64,000 bases of DNA from Squalus acanthias (Eukaryota). The position numbers were made by a program, and so were the translations under genes. Numbering within the stretch: position 1 is the stretch's first letter; the number at the start of each line of letters is the position of its first letter. This document shows, in pieces, positions 33,501 to 62,902 of this stretch. Under the pieces are notes generated by a model. That model was not told where the DNA came from and did no database searches. It was given only the letters and a program-made list of their open reading frames with translations. The stretch covers positions 156,366,001 to 156,430,000 of the forward strand of contig CM059431.1 of the NCBI GenBank assembly GCA_030390025.1, read 5' to 3'.

Positions 33501-34421
33501 ATGGCAGGGGAGGCAGTGAAATGTTCCTCCTGCAGAATGTTTGAGGTGAGGGACGCCGTAGGTGTCCCTGCTGATTACACCTGTGGGAAGTGCACCCATC
33601 TCCAGCTCCTCGAAAACCGTGTTAGGGAACTGGAGCTGGATGAACTTCGGATCATTCGGGAGGCAGAGGAGGTCATAGATAGAAGCTTCAGGGATGTAAT
33701 TACTCCAAAGCATGAAGATAGATGGGTGACGGTGAGAGGGGCTAGGAGGAAGCAGTCAGTGCAGGGATCCTCTGTGGTCGTTCCCCTCAGTAACAGGTAT
33801 ACCGCTTTGAATACTGTTGAGGGGGACGACTTACCAGTGGTAAGCCACGGTGACCGGATCTCCGGCGCTGGGTCCGTCCCTGTGGCTCAGAAGGGAAGGG
33901 GGGAGAGCAGGAGAGCAATAGTTATTGGGGACTCAATAGTCAGAGGGACAGATAGGAGGTTCTGTGGCAGCAAAAGAGACTCACGGATGGTATGATGCCT
34001 CCCGGGTGCCAGGGTCCGTGACGTCTCTGACCGTGTTTTCAGAATCCTCAAAGGGGAAGGGGAACAATCACAAGTCGTGGTACACATCGGTACCAACGAC
34101 ATAGGTAGGAGAAGGGACGGGGATTTAAAACAGGAATTTAGGGAGCTAGGTTGGAAGCTGAGAGCCAGTACAAACCATGTTGTAATTTCTGGTTTGTTGC
34201 CGGTGCCACGTGCTAGCGAGTTGAGGAACAGGGAGAGAGTGCAGATAAACACGTGGCTGCAGGGATGGTGTAGGGGGGAGGGTTTCAGTTATGTCGATAA
34301 TTGGAGCACATTCTGGGGAAGGTGGGACCTGTACAAACAGGACGGTTTGCACCTGAACCAGAGGGGCACCAATATCCTGGGAGGGAAATTTGCTACGGCT
34401 CTTCGGGGGGGTTTAAACTAA
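33501..34421 (+). pseudogene. CR1 ORF1 (CxxC...CxxC zinc finger, leucine zipper, SGNH esterase) with one premature stop at 33993-33995
   Basis: CSSC...CGKC, LQLLENRVRELEL, GDSIV, GTND and DGLH motifs. Confidence 0.9.
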
Positions 34422-49469: not shown

Positions 49470-51040
49470 ATTTGGAAAGCTAGGTTAGTCGTGGTTCTTG
49501 TCGGGACCAGTGACAAAGGGTAAAAAAATGAGGAGTTCTGGCTGAGGGAGTATGTGCAGTGAAGAGCTAAATTAAAAAAAAACATGTCCTCAAGGGTGCT
49601 AATCTCAGGATTATTACCCGAGCCACGTGCTAATTGCCATAGAGTCAAGCAGACAAGAAAGGTGAACACGTGGCTGGAAGAATGGTGTGGGAGGGAGGGG
49701 CTCCATTTCATGGGACACTCCTACCAGTACTGGGCAAAGAGATAGCTATACCGTTGGAACAGGCTGTACCTGACCCGGGCTGAAGAAAATTCCTAGTGGA
49801 AAGGATAAATAGCGTGGGAAAAATGGACATTAAACTGTTAAATCCGGGTGGGGACCGGGCTCAGTCATAAACAACAGTAACAATGACAATTGAACGATAC
49901 AAAATGATAACAGCGGAGTTCAGGTCACCACACTGATACTCCAGTTGAAGGGAATACTAAAATAATTAAAGCACTTACAGCAGAATTGACAAATAAGAAA
50001 CCTGTAGAGTAAACGGTGTAAGAAACACAGAATCAGGTCCAAAGGTCAACTTAGGGTCCCTTTCACAATTAAGAGTTTTATATACTAACGTATAAGAAAT
50101 AAATTTAATGAATTGGAGGCTCAAATGTGTCAAATGGATTCGAGTCTGCTGATGATACAAAGCTAGGTGTGAAAGTAAGTTGTGAGGCAGGAGCAAAGAT
50201 GATGCAAAGGGATATAGACACTTAAAGTGAGTGGTAGAGAATACGGCAGATGGAATATAATGTGGAGAAATGTGAAGTTATCCACTTTGGTACGAAAAAT
50301 AGAAAAACAGATCGGGAAATGTTGCGATTCAGGGCGAACTGGGTGTCCTTGTACACTGCAAGTTAGCATGCAGGTGCAACAAGCAATTAGGAAAGCAAAT
50401 GATCTGTTAGCTTTAATTTTTTTTAAAGATTGGTGTTTAAGAGTAAATAAGTCGTACTGCAATTATTCCTTGGTGAGAACACACCTGGAGTACTGTGTAA
50501 AGTTTTGGTCTCATTACCTAAGGAAATATATGTTTGCCTTTGAGTTAGTGCAGCGAAGGTCCAACAGACTGATTGCTTGGGATGAGGGGATTGCCTATGA
50601 GGAGAGAATGAGGAGACTAGGCCCATATTCCCTAGAATTTAGAAGAATGAGAGGGGATCTCATTGAAACATATAAACTTATTAGAGGGCTTGACAGGGTA
50701 GATGCTGGGAGAGGTTTCCCCTGGCTGGGGAGTCTAGAACTAGGGAACACAATCTCTGAATAAGGGGTCGGCCATTTAGGACTGAGGTGATGAGGAATTT
50801 CTACATTCAGATGTTTGGGAATCTTTGGAATTCTCTGCACCAGAAGAAAGTGGTTGCTCAGTCGTTGAGTATATTCAAGACATAGATCAGTAGATTTGTG
50901 AATATTAATGGTATCAGGGGATATGGGGATAGTTCAGGAAAGTGGAGTTGAGGTAGAAGATCAGCCATGTTCTTATTGAATGGTGGAGCAGGTTCGAGGG
51001 CCCGCATGGCCTGCTCCTGCTCCCATTTCTAATGTTCTTA
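49470..51040 (+). mobile_element. Degenerate, internally deleted CR1 (ORF1 esterase remnant, start of EN, RT C-terminus, tail)
   Basis: ISGLLPEPRA, NTWLEEWC, ADDTKLG and EFRRMRGDLIETYK motifs; tail at ~50960-51040. Confidence 0.8.
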
Positions 51041-51336: not shown

Positions 51337-54300
51337 GGCCCGTATTTTCCGATCAGAGGCTTCCTGCGTGCGATGGCCTCCGATCTGGAAAAAAACATCT
51401 ACACCGTTACCTGAGCGCTACTGAGGTCCGGACATTTCCGCTCCTGGGCCTCTGCTCTACGAAATGCGCAGAGCCCAGGCATCCCAGGGGCGCAGGCAGT
51501 TACTAAGCATCCCTGGGATCACGTTGTCCATGGGAAACCAATGAATACGTGGCTAGAGGAATGGTGCAAGGGGGAGGGATACAAATTCCTGGGACATTGG
51601 AATCGGTTCTGGGGGAGGTGGGACCAGTACAAACCGGACGGTCTGCACCTGGGCAGGGCCGGGACCGCTGTCCTAGGGGGAGTGTTTGCTAATGCTATTG
51701 GGGAGGATTTAAACTAATGTGGCAGGGGGTTGGGAACATGATAAGGGAGACAGAGCAAAGCATGTCAGGAAGGGACAGAAGTTATGGAGTAAAAGGTAAA
51801 GTGTTAAATAAGGAAAAAGCAGGAAGTAAGTGTCGCAAAACACATTTGAAAGTTCTTTATCTGAATGCACGTAGCATTCGTAACAAAATTGACGAGTTAA
51901 AGGCACAAATAACTATGTATGGGTATGATCTTGTGGCCATTACAGAAACATTGCTGCAGGGTGACAACGTCTGGGATTTAAATATGCCAGGTTATTTAAC
52001 AATCAGGAAGGACAGGCAGGAAGGAAGGGGAGGGGGGGTGGCTATGTTAATAAAGGAAGTAATCACTGTAATACAGAGACATGATATTGGGTCAAAAGAT
52101 CAGGATAATGAGACAGTTTGGGTAGAGATTAGGAATAATACGGGGAAAAAACACTGGTGGCAGCAATATATAGGCCTCCTAATAGTTGCAACTCTGTTGG
52201 AAGAAGTATTAATCAGGAAATAGTTGGGGCATGTAATAAGGGAACAGCTATAATTATGGGGGATTTTAACTATCATATTAACTGGACAAATCAATTTGGG
52301 CAGGGCAGCCTTGAGGAAGAGTTTATTGAGTGTCTTAGGGATGGATTTCTTGAGCAGTATGTAACTGATCCTACAAGGGGGCAAGCAGCCTTGGACCTGG
52401 TACTGTGTAATGAGTCGGGATTAATTTATAATTTCCTAGTTAAGGATCCCCTTGGAATGAGTGACCATAACATGGTTGAATTCCATATCCAATTAGAGGG
52501 TGAGAAGTTTGGTTCTCAAACAAGCATACTGAGCTTGAATAAAGGAGACTATGATGGCATGATAGCAGAATTGATTAAAGTGGACTGGGAAAATAGATTA
52601 AAGGGTAAGACGGTACATGAGCAGTGGTGTTCATTCAAGGAGTTAATTTACAACTTTCAAAATAATTATATTCCACTGAGGAAAAAAGGGTGTAAAAGAA
52701 ATGACAGCCATCCATGGCTAAGTAAAGAAATTAAAGAGAGTATGCAACTAAAAACAAGGAGATATAAGTTAGCCAAAGTTAGTGGGAGGATAGAAGATTG
52801 GGAAGTCTTCAAAAGACAACAAAAAGTAACTAAAGGATTGATTAAGAAAGCGAAAATAGACTATGAAAATAAATTAGCAAAAAATATAAAAACAGATAGC
52901 AAGAGTTCTATAGTTATATAAAAAGAAAAAGGGTGGTTAAGGCAAACGTAGGTCCCTTAGAGGATGAGACCGGGAAATTAATGGTGGGAAACATGGAGAT
53001 GGCAAAAATGCTGAACAAATATTTTGTTTCAGTCTTTATGGTAGAGGACACTAACAATATCCCAACACTGGACAAACAGGGGGCTCTAGTGGGGGAGGAG
53101 CTTAATACGATTAAAATTACTAAGGTATTGGTACTCAGTAAAATAATGGGATCTCAAGGCGCATAAATCCCCTGGACCTGATGGCTTACATCCTAGGGTC
53201 TTGCGGGAAGTGGCAGTAGGAATTGTGGATGCTTTGGTAATAATTTTCCAAAACTCCCTGAACTCAGCAAAGGTCCCGGCAGATTGGAAAACTGCTAATG
53301 TAACACCCTTATGTAAAAAGGGTTGTAGGCAGAAGGCTTGAAATTATAGACCAGTTAGCCTAACATCTGTGGTGGGTAGAATTTTGGAGTCTATTATTAA
53401 GGAGACAGTAAAGGACCATTTAGATAAACATAATTTAATAGGACAAAGTCAGCATGGCTTTATGAAGGGGAAGTCATGTCTGACAAATTTGCTCGAGTTC
53501 TTTGAGGACATAACGTACAGGGTGGATAAAGGGGAACCTTTGGATGTAGTGTATTTAGACTTCCAGAAGGCATTCGACAAGGTGCCACATAAAATATTAT
53601 TACTCAAGATAAAAAATCACTGGATTGGGGGTAATATTCTGGCATGGGTGGAGGATTGGTTATCTAACAGGAAGCAGGGAGTTGGGATAAATGGTTCATT
53701 CTCGGACTGGCAACCAGTAGCCAGTGGTGTTCCGCCGGGGTCGGTGCTGGGTCCCCAACTCTTTACAATCTATATTAACGATTTGGAGGAGGGGACCGAG
53801 TGTAACATATCAAAGTTTGCAGATGATACAAACATGGGAGGGAAAGTAGAGAGTGAGGAGGACATAAAAAACCTACAAGGGGATACAGACAGGCTGGGTG
53901 AGTGGGCAGAGATTTGGCAGATGCAATACAATATTGGAAAATTTGAGGTTATGCACTTTGGCAGGAAAAATCAGAGAGCAAGTTATTATCTTATGGCGAG
54001 AAACTGGAAAGTACTGCAGTACAAAGGGATCTGGGGTTCTTGGTGCAAGAAAATCAAAAAGTTAGTATGCAGGTGCAGCAGGTGATCAAGAAAGCCAATG
54101 GAATGTTGGCTTTTATTGCTAGGGGGATAGAATATAAAAACAGGGAGGTATTGCTGCAGTTGTATAGGATATTGGTGAGACCGCACCTGGAGTACTGCAT
54201 ACAGTTTTGGTGTCCATACTTAAGAAAATACATACTTGCTCCCGAGGCAGTACAAAGAAGGTTCACTCGGTTAATTCCGGGGATGAGGGGGTGGACATAC

Positions 54301-55276: not shown

Positions 55277-56037
55277 CATAAGGAGACCAAACCAGCACGC
55301 AGTACTCCAGGTATGGTCTCACCAGCGCCCTGTAAGGTTGTAGCAAGACTTTCCTACTTATATACTCCAACCCCCTTGCAATAAAGGCCAAATTTTAATT
55401 TGCCTTCCTAATTACTTGATGTACCTGCATCCTAACTTTCCGTGTTTTATGTACGAGGACACCCAGATATCACTATACAACAGCATTTTGTAGACTATCT
55501 CAATTTAAAAAATAATTTGCTTCTTTATTTTTCCTACCAAAGTGGATAAACTCACATTTTCCCACATTGTACTCCATCTGCCAATGTTTTGCCCACTATC
55601 TTAACCTATCTATATCCCTTTCCAGACTCTTTGTGTCCTCCTCACAACTTGCTTTCCCACCCATCCTTTTATCATCAGCAAATCTCGCTACAGTACACAA
55701 GGTCCTTACATCCAAATCATTAATATAGATTGTAAATAGTTGAGGGCCCAGCACTGATGGCTGAGGCACCCCAGTAGTTACAGTTTGCCAACCTGGAAAT
55801 AACTCATTCATTCCGACACTTTGTTTTCTGTTACTTAGGCAATCCTCTACCCATGCTAATAGATTACCCCCAACACCGTGAGCTCTTATCTTGTGCAGTA
55901 ACCTTTTAGGTGGCACCGTATCAAATGCCTTTTGGAAAACAAAATACGCTACATTTACTGGTTCCCCTTGATCCACCCTACTCATTACATCCTCAAAGAA
56001 CTCCAATAAATTTGACAAACAGGATTTCCCTTTCATA

Positions 56038-56823
56038 AGCATCCACGATTCTGAGAGGGTTGTGAATAGCACATTTAGTGAGTTGGTCACACCGCAGGTT
56101 AAGGCCAGAGTAGATAGTACATGGGTGACCAAAAGGCAGAGCAAGGGCAGGAAGGTAGTGCAGGAATCCCCTGGGGTTGTCTCCCTCAGCAACAGGTTCA
56201 CCGCCTTAGGTGCTGTTGTCGGGGGGGATGACTCATCGGGGGAAGGCACCAGCAGCCAGGCTCATGGCACCATGACTGGCTCTGTTGCAAAGAAGGGAGG
56301 GAAAAAGAGTGGCAGGGCTATAGTAATAGGGGATTCGATTGTAAGGGGAATAGATAGGAGTTTCTGTGGTCGCGACCGAGACTCCAGGATGGTAATTTGC
56401 CTCCCTGGTGCAAGGGTCAAGGATGTCTCGGCGCGGGTGCAGAACATTCTGGAGGGGGAGGGGGAACAGCCAGTTGTCGTGATACATGTTGGTACCAACG
56501 ACGTAGCTAAAAAAAGGGAAGAGGTCCTACAAGTAGAATTTAGGGAGTTAGGAGCCAAGCTAAAAAGTAGGACCTCGAAGGTAGTAATCTCTGGATTACT
56601 ACCAGTGCCACGTGCTAGTAAGAGTACAGAGAACAGGATAGTTAGGCTAAATACGTGGCTTGAGCAGTGGTGTAAGAGGGAGGGTTTTAAATTTTTGAGG
56701 CATTGGGACCAGTTTTGTGGTAGGTGTGACCTATACAAAAGGGACGGTCTACACCTGTGCAATGATGGAACTGATGTTCTCGGGGTAAATTTTGATAAAG
56801 CAGTTCGGGAGCATTTAAACTAG
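56038..56823 (+). CDS. CR1 ORF1p, N-terminally truncated (SGNH esterase domain)
   Basis: Open frame with GDSIV, GTND and DGLH, ending ...EHLN*. Confidence 0.85.
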   Translation, partial: SIHDSERVVNSTFSELVTPQVKARVDSTWVTKRQSKGRKVVQESPGVVSLSNRFTALGAVVGGDDSSGEGTSSQAHGTMTGSVAKKGGKKSGRAIVIGDSIVRGIDRSFCGRDRDSRMVICLPGARVKDVSARVQNILEGEGEQPVVVIHVGTNDVAKKREEVLQVEFRELGAKLKSRTSKVVISGLLPVPRASKSTENRIVRLNTWLEQWCKREGFKFLRHWDQFCGRCDLYKRDGLHLCNDGTDVLGVNFDKAVREHLN

Positions 56824-59800
56824 TATGGCAGGGGGCTAGAAACCCATGTAGTGAAATAGAGGAAAGTGAAAGGCAGACAGAAATAAATGGTAAAAAGGAG
56901 AGGAACAAAAAACAAAGGGCCAAACTAATTCATAAAAAATGTGAGCATAAAAAAAGCCTGAGGGTTTTATACCTTAATGCGAGAAGCATCAGGAACAAGG
57001 TAGATGAATTAGCTGTGGAAATAGAGGTTAATAATTATGATCTAATTGGGATTACGGAAACATGGTTGCAGGGTGAGCAGGGCTGGGAGCTTAACATACA
57101 GGGGTATTCAGTATTTAGGAAGGATCGACAAAAAAGAAAGGGAGGAGGGGTAGCATTGCTGGTAAAAGAGGGGATAAATGCAATTGAAAGGAAGGATATT
57201 AACTCAGTTAATACAGAATCTATATGGGTGGAGCTAAGAAATAGCGAGGGGCGAAAAACATTAATAGGAGTGGTATATAGGCCTCCAAATAGTAAAATAG
57301 AGGTTGGGGAGGGCATCACGAGGGAAATTAGAGAAGCGTGCAATAAGAGCACAGCTGTCATCATAGGTGACTTTAACTTACATATAGATTGGACTAGCCT
57401 AATCAGTAAAAATAATGAGGAGGAGGAATTCCTTGAGTGTTTAAGGGATGGTTATCTGGATCAATATGTCGAGGAACCAACTCGGGAACAGGCTATATTG
57501 GACTGGGTACTGTGCAATGAGAAGGGACTAATTAGTAATCTTGTTGTACGGGGACCCTTGGGTCAGAGCGATCATAACATGATCGATTTCTCACTCGAAA
57601 TGGAGAGCGAAGAAATTGACTCAGAGACTCAGGTCCTGAATTTAAACAAGGGGAATTATGATGCCATTAGACGGGAACTGAGTAGGTCTGATTGGACAAC
57701 GTTCCTGGGAGGACTGGAGGTAGATAAACAATGGCAAGCATTTAAAGATAGAATGACAAAATTGCAAAAATTGTTTATACCAATCTGGCATAAAAGGAAA
57801 TCTAAAAAGGTGACTCAACCGTGGATAACAGGGGAAATTAGAGACAGCATAAAATCCAAAGATAGGGCGTATAAAATAGCCAAAAAACGCGCCAGAGCGG
57901 AAGATTGGGAACAGTTTAAGATAGAGCAAAGGAGGGCAAAGGGCTTAATCAAGAAGGGCAAAATAGCTTACGAAAGCAAGCTGGCGGAAAATATAAAAAC
58001 TAACTCCAAAAGCTTTTATAAGTATATCAAGAGGAAAAGACTGGTGAAAACCAAAGTTGGTCCATTGCAGTCAGATACGGGGGAATATATAATGGGAAAT
58101 AAGGAAATGGCAGACCAACTAAATGCATACTTTGGGTCAGTCTTTACGAAGGAAGACACAAAAAACCTCCCTGGGATATCGGGAAAAATAGGGACATTGG
58201 CAAAGGAGGAACTGACGCAAATCAATATCTCTAAGGATATGGTGTTAAGGAAGCTAAAGGGATTGAAGGCGGACAAATCCCCAGGGCCTGATAACATGCA
58301 TCCTAGGGTACTGAAGGAGGTGGCCCTAGAGATAGCGGATGCACTAAGCATGATTTTTCAGAATTCATTAGACTCGGGAACAGTGCCCATGGATTGGAGG
58401 GTAGCTAACGTTACCCCACTATTCAAAAAGGGGGGTAGGGAAAAAGCAGGTAATTACAGACCTGTAAGCCTTACATCAGTTGTGGGCAAAATGCTGGAGT
58501 CCATCATTAAGGATGAAATAGCCGAGCACTTAGCAAATGGGGACAGGATAGGACAGAGTCAACATGGATTTACAAAGGGTAAATCGTGCTTGACTAATCT
58601 ATTGGAATTTTTTGAGGGAGTAACTGGTAAAATAGATGGGGGAGAGCCAGTAGATGTGGTGTACCTGGACTTCCAAAAGGCCTTCGATAAGGTCCCACAT
58701 AAAAGATTAGCATGGAAAATTGAAGCTCATGGGATAAAGGGGAAAGTATTGACGTGGATAGAGAACTGGCTGTCAGATAGAAAACAGAGAGTTGGAATAA
58801 ACGGCTCATTTTCTGAATGGCAGGCAGTAACAAGTGGGGTACCACAGGGATCTGTCCTGGGTCCCCAGCTGTTCACAATTTATATTAATGACCTGGATCA
58901 GGGAGTCGAATGCAGCATTTCCAAATTTGCAGACGACACTAAACTAGGAGGGGGGGTGGGCTCAGAGGAGGAGACCAGGAAGCTCCAGAGCGATTTGGAC
59001 AGACTGGGTGATTGGGCGGATAAATGGCAGATGCACTATAATGTGGACAAGTGCGAAGTTATCCACCTTGGGTGCAGGAACGGGAGGGCAAATTATTATT
59101 TAAATGGCAATAAATTGGGAGAGGGGGAAGTACAGAGAGACCTGGGTGTTCTTGTACACCAGTCACTGAAGGCGAGCATGCAGGTGCAACAGGCGGTCAA
59201 GAAGGCAAACGGTATGCTGGCCTTCATAGCAAAAGGGTTGGAATACAGGAACAGGGATACCTTGCTGCAGCTGTACAGGGCACTGGTGAGACCACACCTC
59301 GAGTACTGTGTACAGTTTTGGTCGCCTCATCTGAGGAAAGATGTTCTTGCCATGGAGGGGGTGCAGCGGCGATTCACCAGGCTGATACCAGGAATGGCGG
59401 GATTGACCTATGAGGAGAGACTATGTAGTTTAGGGATGTACACACTGGAGTTTAGAAGATTGAGAGGGGACCTCATAGAAGTGTATAAAATTCTGACAGG
59501 TCTAGACAGATTAGATGCAGAAGGAATGTTTCCCTTGGCGGGTGAGAACAGAACTAGAGGACATAATTTAAGGATAAGGGCTAAACCATTTAGGACAGAA
59601 ATGAGGGGGAATTTCTTCACTCAGAGAGTGGTGAACCTGTGGAACTCATTGCCACAGAGGGCAGTGTACGCCAGCTCATTAAATATATTTAAGAGGGAAT
59701 TAGATATATTTCTACAGGCAAAAGGGGTTAAGGGTTACGGAGAGAAGGCGGGGACGGGATACTGAATTGAAGGATCAGCCATGATCTCATTAAATGGCGG

Positions 59801-59863
59801 AGCAGGCTCGAAGGGCCGGATGGCCTACTCCTGCTCCTATCTTCTATGTATCTATGTATCTAT
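56039..59863 (+). mobile_element. Young CR1 LINE (subfamily B), 5'-truncated in ORF1, both frames uninterrupted
   Basis: TSD ATAA at 56035-38 and 59862-65; (CTATGTAT)n tail. Confidence 0.97.
56814..59765 (+). CDS. Intact CR1 ORF2p (APE endonuclease plus reverse transcriptase); start given at the putative frameshift site
   Basis: The 916-aa ORF extends upstream without a stop through LRVLYLNARS to TTT AAA CTA at 56814. Motifs TETW, GDFN, SDH, QGSVLGP and FADD are intact. Confidence 0.92.
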   Translation, partial: FKLVWQGARNPCSEIEESERQTEINGKKERNKKQRAKLIHKKCEHKKSLRVLYLNARSIRNKVDELAVEIEVNNYDLIGITETWLQGEQGWELNIQGYSVFRKDRQKRKGGGVALLVKEGINAIERKDINSVNTESIWVELRNSEGRKTLIGVVYRPPNSKIEVGEGITREIREACNKSTAVIIGDFNLHIDWTSLISKNNEEEEFLECLRDGYLDQYVEEPTREQAILDWVLCNEKGLISNLVVRGPLGQSDHNMIDFSLEMESEEIDSETQVLNLNKGNYDAIRRELSRSDWTTFLGGLEVDKQWQAFKDRMTKLQKLFIPIWHKRKSKKVTQPWITGEIRDSIKSKDRAYKIAKKRARAEDWEQFKIEQRRAKGLIKKGKIAYESKLAENIKTNSKSFYKYIKRKRLVKTKVGPLQSDTGEYIMGNKEMADQLNAYFGSVFTKEDTKNLPGISGKIGTLAKEELTQINISKDMVLRKLKGLKADKSPGPDNMHPRVLKEVALEIADALSMIFQNSLDSGTVPMDWRVANVTPLFKKGGREKAGNYRPVSLTSVVGKMLESIIKDEIAEHLANGDRIGQSQHGFTKGKSCLTNLLEFFEGVTGKIDGGEPVDVVYLDFQKAFDKVPHKRLAWKIEAHGIKGKVLTWIENWLSDRKQRVGINGSFSEWQAVTSGVPQGSVLGPQLFTIYINDLDQGVECSISKFADDTKLGGGVGSEEETRKLQSDLDRLGDWADKWQMHYNVDKCEVIHLGCRNGRANYYLNGNKLGEGEVQRDLGVLVHQSLKASMQVQQAVKKANGMLAFIAKGLEYRNRDTLLQLYRALVRPHLEYCVQFWSPHLRKDVLAMEGVQRRFTRLIPGMAGLTYEERLCSLGMYTLEFRRLRGDLIEVYKILTGLDRLDAEGMFPLAGENRTRGHNLRIRAKPFRTEMRGNFFTQRVVNLWNSLPQRAVYASSLNIFKRELDIFLQAKGVKGYGEKAGTGY

Positions 59864-61353: not shown

Positions 61354-62902
61354 AGAGTCTGTCTTTCTCTCTGGTATAAACCTATTCTAAGAGTTATAAA
61401 ATATCTCCTTAAATGTATGCCAGTGCTTATCTACTGTCTTATCCTTTAATCTATTATCCCAGTCTACTTAAGCCAACTCTGTCTTCATACCTTTGTAATT
61501 GCCTTTATTTAAGTTTGGGACACTAGTTTTAGAAAGAAGTTTCTCACCTTCAATCTGAATTTGAAATTCATTCGAGTTATGATCACTCTTACCCAAATAT
61601 TCCTTTAATATGAGCACATTACTTATTCCTTTCTCATTACATATTACCTGTTCTAAAATAGCCTTCTCCCTGGTTGCTTCCACAACGTATTGTGCTAAGA
61701 AATCTACTCAAATACATTTTATGAACTCCTCCTCAATGTTACACTTGCCAATTTCATTTGTCCAATCTATATAAAGAATACAATCGCCCGTGATTATCGC
61801 AGTACATTTTTTACAAGCCTCCATTATTTCTTGATTTATATTCTGTCCTACAGTGTAGCTACTGTTATCGGACATAGAGACTGCTTCCATCAGTGACTTC
61901 TTTCCTTTCTATTTCTTATCTCCAACCAAACTGATTTTGCGTCTTGATCTTCTGAGCCAATATCATTTCTCACCACTGCACTGATCACATCCTTTATTAA
62001 CAGAGCTACCCTTTCCTCCTTTTCCTTTCTGTCTATCCTTCGGAAATGACAAATACCCCTGAATATTCATTTCCCAGCCTTGGTCACCTTGCAACCACGT
62101 CTCTGTAATGGCTATGAGATCATACCCATTTAGTTCTATTTGCGGCGTCAACTCATCTATCTTGTTAGGAATGCTGCGCGAATTCCGATAAAGAGCCTTT
62201 AATTTTGGCTTTTTACCATGTTTCTATATTCTGACACTATTTTCTGGTGCCCGCTTAGGTCCGTAAGCTCTGTCTCCTACTGTCACACTCTTGTTAACAA
62301 TAGTCCTATTGCTACCCTGCACTATTACCGTGTCCATTCTCTTTGAAGTTCTACGTTCCCCTTCACCTGAAATCCCCTCCCCCATCCCACTATTTAGTAT
62401 CAAGCCCTATATACCGCCCTAGTTATTCGATTCGCCAGGACACTAGTCCCTGCATGGTTCAAGAGAAGCCTCTCCCAACGGAACAGCGCCCTTTTCCCCC
62501 AGTACTGGTGCAAGTGCCCCATGAATCAAAACCCATTCTCCCACACCAATCTTTGAGCCATGCATTCATCTCTCTGATCTTATTGACCGCATGCCAATTT
62601 GCTCGTGGCTCAGGTACCTTTGTGGTTCTGCTTTACAATTTGGCCCCTAGCTGCTCATAATCACTCAGCAGAACCTCTTTCTTTGTCCTACCTATGTCGC
62701 TGTTAACTATGTGTACCACTACAACTGGTTCTTTCCCCTCCCACTCCACGTTCCTCTCCAGCCCCGAGGAGATGTCCTTAACCCTGGCACAGGGCAGGAA
62801 ACACTGCCTCCGGGATTCATGCTTTCGGCTGCAGTGAACAGTATCTACATCCCCCGAAGTATACTGTCCCCTACCACGACGACATTCCTTTCACTCCCCC
62901 AA

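Follow-up and report, generated by a model that had tools for sequence, protein, structure and literature searches.

The window analyzed in this work, a stretch of 64,000 nucleotides from Squalus acanthias (assembly GCA_030390025.1, contig CM059431.1, positions 156,366,001 to 156,430,000 of the forward strand), is crowded with fragments of CR1-type long interspersed nuclear elements (LINEs) and contains one complete copy at 56038-59863 (+). In this copy open reading frame 1 (ORF1) encodes an esterase and open reading frame 2 (ORF2) an endonuclease (EN) followed by a reverse transcriptase (RT). Judged from the sequence comparisons reported here, the heptamer U UUA AAC (TTTAAAC in the DNA) which ends ORF1 of these CR1 LINEs is probably a programmed -1 ribosomal frameshift site. 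The heptamer was found in the phase X XXY YYZ of the zero frame, the -1 frame is open from the slip site onwards and has no conserved start codon, and the synonymous sites of the heptamer are conserved. An original prediction, made from the letters of the window, had suggested a candidate -1 frameshift that leads to an esterase-EN-RT fusion protein; the comparative evidence supports this suggestion.

The ORF1/ORF2 Junction in the Window

The original prediction had located TTTAAAC directly 5' of the ORF1 stop codon in four junctions of the window. Inspection of these junctions revealed the sequence TTTAAACTA(G/A) in all of them, at 56814-56823 (+), 51708-51717 (+), 34412-34421 (+) and 14246-14237 (-), respectively. 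The phase X XXY YYZ in ORF1 was confirmed with the preceding codons CAT, GAT, GGT and GGT (junctions 56814, 51708, 34412 and 14246), and ORF2 was indeed found in the -1 frame (TTT AAA CTA ...), where it leads into the endonuclease and the reverse transcriptase. In the complete copy ORF1 ends with ...gag caT TTA AAC TAG, and the -1 frame reads TTT AAA CTA GTA TGG CAG GGG and is open from 56799. The statements on start codons also held. The first ATG in the ORF2 frame of the intact copy lies 255 codons past the heptamer within ...SDHNM..., the copies at 34412 and 14246 likewise have no ATG ahead of the endonuclease start LYLNARS, and the copy at 51708 shows CTAATG, which is a stop/start overlap. 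Downstream of the four junctions only TG(G/T)CAGGGGG is common, and no conserved downstream structure was detected (RNAalifold, 0 pairs in the 13 sequences described below), as had been noted before.

TTTAAAC occurs 18 times in the window compared to 8.7 expected occurrences, and none of 100 shuffled sequences reached this count. One in-phase slippery heptamer alone is not rare, since the same young element carries 7 others within 1,250 codons. It is the conservation that exceeds chance.

Conservation across Copies and Subfamilies of the Genome

An unselected sample was compiled from the window and four arbitrary 200-kb stretches of four chromosomes (864 kb in total), in which every ORF1 C-terminus was located by tblastn. 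This search yielded 31 clusters of ORF1 C-termini, 27 of them with an adjoining ORF2 N-terminus. The exact heptamer was present in 20 of these 27 junctions. The remaining seven comprise four one-base variants (TTTATAC, TTTGAAC, TTTAAAG and ATTAAAC), one deletion, one decayed junction and one junction beyond the displayed stretch. In each column of the heptamer the majority base was found in 24-26 of the 27 copies. When all 10-nt windows of these copies were ranked by mean pairwise identity, the one starting at the heptamer was at the top of 260 with a value of 0.84 versus a median of 0.51; the catalytic DGLHL motif of the esterase reached 0.82.

The linkers sort the copies of this genome into at least 10 subfamilies (A, A2, B1, B2, C1-C4, D1, D2) plus the distant D3 and E. 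In subfamily D3, 26 of 29 other copies read gcTTTAAACTAA. In the old family E, the copies of which are diverged by about 25%, the heptamer is kept in 15/29 and the sequence is mostly caTTTAAACTAG. From their sequences, the old subfamilies E and D3 appear to decay from the same ancestral site.

For a comparison across lineages, 12 subfamily representatives of this genome and one foreign contig were aligned. The 13 sequences are strongly diverged upstream of the heptamer (pairwise identity of 0.42-0.90 over 291 ORF1 positions), and TTTAAACTA is the only invariant run of more than 3 nt in this alignment. Among the third-codon positions, 5 of 97 are invariant upstream versus all three inside the site. 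Conservation beyond the amino-acid constraint, on which the prediction had been made to depend beforehand, was thus observed: the preceding codon is CAT, GAT, GGT, AGT or GCT and its final T is constant. Furthermore, Leu-Asn is always encoded by TTA AAC at the site, as had been stated, while TTA accounts for 18% of the Leu codons of the element and AAC for 25 of its 60 Asn codons. A control N-L-N site inside ORF2 drifts synonymously (TTA/TTG/CTA and AAT/AAC). The seven other in-phase slippery heptamers were kept in only 3/29, 1/21, 4/35, 6/47, 7/34, 4/28 and 23/83 homologous copies. Inside ORF2, at 57641-57647, TTTAAAC occurs once more in slippery phase and encodes N-L-N after the SDHN motif; it is exact in 4/35 copies of other subfamilies and is not conserved.

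A family consensus with an AUG at the stop codon would have spoken for another mode of translation. No such conserved AUG was observed, in agreement with the prediction. The -1 frame codon after CTA is GTA, ATA, AAG, ATG, AAA, ATT, ACT, GGT or GAA. An AUG that overlaps the stop codon, comparable to the UAAUG or AUGA of SART1- or calicivirus-type reinitiation, was found in 2 of 12 distinct lineages and is absent in the other 10, including the recently active family.

The genome also contains an internally deleted CR1 derivative family in which the start of the endonuclease is joined to the 'FADDTKLG' region of the RT. The two copies that were seen, one at 49825-49843 of the window and one in L043 near 1549, share the same internal deletion, and both lack one T of the heptamer (aTTAAAC and cTTAAAC, respectively). 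The loss of this T in a non-autonomous family would fit a signal that is needed only by elements making their own ORF2 protein (ORF2p), although two copies are an anecdote.

Sequence Context of the Heptamer

The zero-frame stop codon always abuts the heptamer; TAA and TAG are used in this genome, and a published lizard consensus has TGA. In 13/13 representatives a G-run of 4-8 residues begins 7-10 nt past the heptamer. Stimulatory structures of -1 frameshift sites usually begin at about this distance of 7-10 nt. The sequence CTAAT...CAG/G was also considered as a splice site; this reading was rejected by eye, as CAG is absent in the D, E and foreign lineages.

In 10 of the 13 lineages a stop codon of the -1 frame (TAA, TAG or TGA) is found exactly 15 nt upstream of the heptamer; beyond it, more than 100 nt usually pass before another -1 stop is reached. 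Therefore, the change of frame must occur within a short stretch. The ORF1 residues over this -15 stop vary (DK, AN, AS, TR and LE), and apart from it the -1 frame has no stop over 100-200 nt upstream.

Occurrence of the Site in Other Species

A profile search with a 9-sequence alignment yielded 8 loci in a metagenome collection, of which only L111 was a sufficiently close CR1. On this foreign contig the ORF1 protein (ORF1p) is 36% identical, the junction reads cag aag caT TTA AAC TAG, and the -1 frame continues as FKLERKGG...IYLNARS. The corresponding profile search of genome contigs with the CR1 junction found no loci in either of two scans.

At the protein level a C-terminal -LN was observed in 90 of the 120 best ORF1p homologues of a protein database; most of the others are fragments or chimeric gene models. 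The -LN proteins originate from sharks, rays, a chimaera, a coelacanth, Xenopus, a mormyrid, a reedfish, turtles and lizards. Directly ahead of LN, 89 of the 90 proteins carry G, A, Y, T, F, S, D, C, L, V, H or I, all of which can be encoded by NNT, and one carries E. The residues E, K, Q, M and W, which cannot be encoded by NNT, make up 21% of the neighbouring 60 residues of the ORF1p homologues. Two annotated stingray proteins cross the site (...REG-FKL-NLQGAG... and ...RGG-FKL-DVQGAG...) and continue into the endonuclease; thus, both frames are fixed in that species. Cyprinid L2-like ORF1 proteins end with ...RAET, and the LN-terminal set includes reptile CR1-type proteins. Two further CR1 ORF1p-like sequences carry unexpected names, namely P0009 (listed as a Pseudomonas aeruginosa SGNH hydrolase, 57% identical, ...EGLN) and P0080 (from Protopolystoma xenopodis, a parasite of Xenopus, ...EEILN). 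They probably represent host or contaminant DNA, or else a transfer.

Published consensus sequences were taken from supplementary table 2 of a 2026 survey (PMC13343379), of which the first 400 letters per entry were used and only entries showing the site were counted. Within this part of the table, 19 CR1-group entries were judged to carry TTTAAACT and a stop codon at the end of ORF1. Their hosts include alligator, saltwater crocodile, bearded dragon (with a TGA stop), bullfrog (with one extra T), bowfin and coelacanth as well as elephant shark, catshark, spiny dogfish, sawfish, stingray and a halosaur, the latter with a 'Crack' element. The expected phase was recognized by eye in AllMis_CR1-6a (D L I R R A L N stop), PogVit_CR1-2, HypSab_CR1-6b, ScyCan_CR1-1a and SquAca_CR1-17a. 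In the same partial sequences GGTTTAAACTA(A/G) is also found in the 5' untranslated part of SquAca_CR1-18 and SquAca_CR1-3, far from the end of ORF1.

A search for longer proteins that contain the esterase gave 19 matches. Only two of them, the stingray protein P0121 (esterase and endonuclease) and the cyprinid protein P0131 (esterase and RT), join the esterase to ORF2 domains; the remaining matches combine the esterase with unrelated host domains or contain it alone. This search for in-frame esterase-EN-RT fusions is weak evidence either way. A distantly related LINE with an esterase ORF1 was seen on the metagenome contigs L114 (1128-1433) and L115 (1828-2133). Here ORF1 ends with TGA and the endonuclease ORF follows in the same frame, which is a layout resembling read-through and not frameshifting. 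Among the listed differences between the window and contigs of uncertain RNA or DNA origin from three other organisms, which bear on neither expression nor translation, none falls at 56796-56837 and none is an indel at the heptamer, a comparison of little weight given that 30 further differences stand outside the list.

The Young Full-Length Copy and Other Features of the Window

The complete copy belongs to a young CR1 family. Among 29 further copies of the 3.7-Gb genome that are nearly identical to it, 17 share the exact 5' start at 56038 and none begins upstream of it. The 351-nt junction stretch showed 100% identity in 40 of 40 scored genomic matches (of 738 candidates), which suggests that the family has been active very recently. 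The 3' end consists of about three ATCTATGT units at 59843-59863. CR1 elements typically end with a short microsatellite of about 8-nt units and not with poly(A). With an N-terminal AP-endonuclease and a central RT in ORF2, an esterase ORF1 and a 3' end of the microsatellite type, the young copy shows three features of the CR1 group. The esterase type is reported as the sole identifiable ORF1 type of vertebrate CR1 and L2 in the 2026 survey (PMC13343379).

The ORF1 frame of the young copy is already open at base 1 of the element. The 5' end of the young family (56038-56271) falls within a region that is ORF1 coding sequence in its relatives, and the first ATG is located at 56272; therefore, the young ORF1p of 183 amino acids is devoid of the N-terminal Cys-rich motif and the coiled coil of homologues such as P0003. 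The -1 frame extends from stop to stop over 56799-59765 (988 codons), 983 codons of which run from the heptamer through the endonuclease and the RT. A Pfam search with the 988 codons revealed PF03372 (residues 60-259, E 1.2e-9), PF14529 and PF00078 (residues 546-756, E 1.5e-31). The young element sits inside an older CR1 RT fragment of opposite orientation (55278-56033, minus strand), and consequently the stop-to-stop ORF1 frame extends 66 nt into foreign sequence. The features of the junctions are summarized in Table 1.

Table 1: Features of the window related to the CR1 ORF1/ORF2 junction.
Feature	Position	Strand	Basis
Young CR1 LINE copy, full length for its family	56038..59863	+	shared 5' end, 3' repeat units
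ORF1, first ATG to TAG stop, 183 codons, SGNH/GDSL esterase	56272..56823	+	Pfam PF13472, E 1.2e-11
TAA stop of the -1 frame, located 15 nt upstream of the heptamer	56796..56798	+	recurs across lineages
Candidate slippery heptamer T TTA AAC, X XXY YYZ phase of ORF1	56814..56820	+	frame analysis, conservation
ORF2 from the heptamer onwards (-1 frame): FKLVWQG..., linker of ~45 residues, AP-endonuclease, reverse transcriptase	56814..59765	+	Pfam
ORF1 stop codon TAG directly after the heptamer	56821..56823	+	stop always at this place
G-run GGGGG, 10 nt after the heptamer	56831..56835	+	common to 13/13 representatives
Junction of second subfamily: gaT TTA AAC TAA then TG, making an overlapping ATG	51708..51717	+	
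Junction of third subfamily: ggT TTA AAC TAA	34412..34421	+	
Junction of fourth copy: ggT TTA AAC TAA	14237..14246	-	
Junction of internally deleted derivative family, aTTAAAC, one heptamer T lost	49825..49843	+	
Decayed junction of distant subfamily D3, heptamer mutated in this copy	62379..62407	-	

Proposed Mechanism and Alternative Explanations

The course of translation that we infer from the junction sequence and its phase, from the way the two frames relate, from the nucleotide conservation and from the missing conserved AUG is as follows. A small share of the ribosomes that translate the esterase ORF1 would slip one base back at the heptamer, with the two tRNAs moving in tandem from UUA-AAC to UUU-AAA. 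The slipped ribosomes would read CUA in place of the stop codon and continue into ORF2, which would result in an esterase-endonuclease-RT fusion protein of about 1,163 residues with the junction ...E-H-L-N-L-V-W-Q-G. The remaining ribosomes would terminate at the stop codon and release ORF1p alone. About 45 residues separate the esterase from the endonuclease; in keeping with a linker, they are charged and show little conservation. Because the stop codon always directly follows the heptamer and a downstream RNA structure was not found, we propose the stop codon as the stimulator: its slow decoding, while the tRNAs are placed on UUA and AAC, may give the ribosome time to slip. The conserved G-run 7-10 nt downstream, or a factor bound there, may add to the slip. 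Overall, the process would represent a 'shifty stop' form of tandem slippage. Its efficiency would be low, which would suit a LINE whose demand for ORF2p is far below that for ORF1p, as is established for L1.

Several observations weigh against a frameshift. No stem-loop was detected downstream of the heptamer, with z-scores of +0.26, -0.73, +0.35, +0.41 and +1.27 for five 120-nt folds, and the RNAalifold consensus fold of the 13 lineages contained no pairs in this region, pseudoknots as such not being modelled. Since no downstream structure was found, the classical signal of high-efficiency frameshifting, in which a stem-loop or pseudoknot stands 5-9 nt downstream, appears to be missing. A G-quadruplex was considered as the stimulator in its place. 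It was not adopted, because the two-layer form was predicted in the minimum-energy fold of only 8 of the 13 representatives and not in the young active family. Only copies with an intact site were taken as the 13 representatives; their invariance is thereby inflated, and the unselected set of 27 junctions gives the fair figure. All compared lineages share ancestry, and two of them carry an ATG that overlaps the stop codon. Human L1 translates its ORF2 without an AUG and without frameshifting. Finally, in five of the published consensus sequences (CroPor_CR1-3a and -3c, AllMis_CR1-1b, CalMil_CR1-1b and PriPec_CR1-7) the stretch just upstream is one base shorter, as seen by eye, which would place the site out of phase. 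This shortening may be a consensus error in a G-rich stretch of low confidence.

An alternative without any slip is termination at the ORF1 stop codon, after which some 40S subunits remain bound to the RNA and reinitiate at an AUG or non-AUG codon close by in the -1 frame. In this case a separate ORF2p would be made in the manner of silkworm SART1 or human L1, and TTTAAACTAR would promote the restart or be conserved for some other reason. The constant place of the stop codon would be explained in this way, as would the lack of a frameshift-stimulating structure and the CTAATG overlap of two lineages, and SART1 and L1 provide precedents among LINEs. However, the codon at the position of this AUG varies, and the AUG is missing in 10 of the 12 distinct lineages, among them the recently active one. 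Reinitiation also does not predict a X XXY YYZ sequence in ORF1 phase that includes an invariant third-position T in a variable codon. Upstream of the stop codon the sequence is not conserved: the foreign contig is devoid of the GGGGAGG found in this genome, and no shared tethering motif of the calicivirus type was recognized by eye in the 13 sequences, a dedicated search for motifs or rRNA complementarity not being included. We regard reinitiation as unlikely.

The invariance of the entire heptamer also bears on two further explanations. If only the P-site tRNA-Asn moved from AAC to AAA while the stop codon waits in the A site, U UUA would not be needed. Such a single-tRNA slippage would agree with a stop codon directly after AAC and with the failure to find a downstream structure, but T TTA shows the same invariance as AAC, even at the third-position T of the variable preceding codon, and we consider single-tRNA slippage very unlikely. 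The block might alternatively be conserved for a reason unrelated to ORF2 translation, either as an RNA or DNA signal (for packaging, protein binding or transcription) or as an -LN motif of ORF1p with inherited codons. Conservation that reaches past the heptamer to the stop codon and the G-run, and a terminal -LN that is invariant at the protein level, would be compatible with this explanation. Yet a protein motif fixes neither synonymous positions nor the third base of a variable neighbouring codon. Moreover, only by coincidence would a canonical heptamer then stand in the correct phase, at the one position that permits a change of frame, and be followed by an ORF without a conserved AUG, which makes this explanation highly improbable. 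The preferred explanation is tandem slippage at U UUA AAC.

Comparison with Known Systems

UUUAAAC is the frameshift heptamer of the coronavirus 1a/1b junction, and the CR1 site presents the same heptamer U UUA AAC in the same X XXY YYZ phase. As in coronavirus 1a/1b and retroviral gag-pol, the polymerase ORF occupies the -1 frame downstream and has no start of its own, and a low, fixed ratio of fusion protein to upstream product would be expected for CR1. In contrast to these viral and retroviral sites, no downstream stem-loop was detected in CR1 and the zero-frame stop abuts the heptamer. The upstream product is a capsid or replicase protein in the viral and retroviral systems, while it is an esterase in CR1, a retrotransposon without long terminal repeats (non-LTR).

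A stop codon directly 3' of the slip site is known from 'shifty stop' systems. In potato virus M slippage at the stop involves the P site only, and the site of barley yellow dwarf virus (BYDV) is G GGU UUU UAG. These systems belong to plant viruses, and BYDV additionally requires a downstream and a long-distance structure, whereas no structure was found at the CR1 site.

SART1 employs translational coupling at UAAUG, and human L1 an unconventional termination-reinitiation. Both resemble CR1 in their bicistronic LINE RNA, in the coupling of ORF2 to the end of ORF1 and in a low output of ORF2. In both systems ORF2p is a separate protein, and SART1 depends on the AUG overlap; in CR1 the AUG is not conserved whereas the slippery heptamer is.

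The Dictyostelium LINEs TRE5-A and TRE3-A are stated in a review to need a -1 frameshift for ORF2 (PMC5911963). Therefore, a LINE which reaches its ORF2 by a -1 shift is already in print. These APE-type LINEs differ from CR1 in clade, in their amoeba host and in ORF1. HeT-A and TART are the only non-LTR elements named in the consulted part of a 2016 review on recoding (PMC5009743), where Drosophila HeT-A is listed as an element that needs frameshifting. There the shift occurs within gag and not between ORF1 and an EN-RT ORF2, and HeT-A is a telomeric element of insects. The main text of the 2026 survey (PMC13343379) contains no mention of frameshift, overlap, slippery, reinitiation, fusion or intergenic. 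A statement of frameshifting in CR1 was not found in the literature; older papers on chicken and turtle CR1 as well as Kapitonov and Jurka 2003 could contain one.

Significance

CR1-group elements make up 22-34% of shark and ray genomes according to the 2026 survey (PMC13343379). They are the dominant LINEs of most non-mammalian vertebrates, and a description of how their ORF2 is translated was not found in the literature searched. The conserved heptamer at the exact end of ORF1 makes this question testable. The site would belong to the known kind of -1 frameshift sites and would be atypical in missing a downstream structure; its comparative support is strong and broad.

We tentatively extend the proposal, with less confidence than for the site itself, to jawed vertebrates in general. 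Their CR1 LINEs with an esterase may make EN-RT only as a fusion with ORF1p, by a structure-independent -1 shift at U UUA AAC which is driven by the stop codon and the G-tract (or a factor bound to it) and which would have been kept for about 450 million years. If true, a vertebrate LINE would for the first time be seen to use a programmed frameshift, and stop-stimulated tandem slippage would have a natural example in animals.

If the frameshift takes place, the ratio of ORF1p to ORF2p in CR1 would be set by a rule similar to that of retroviruses. The fusion would physically link the esterase to the RT, which would bear on cis-preference and on membrane association. Annotators could then join ORF1 and ORF2 of CR1 correctly rather than call ORF2 truncated, and a structure-less, stop-adjacent frameshift signal would join the animal repertoire.

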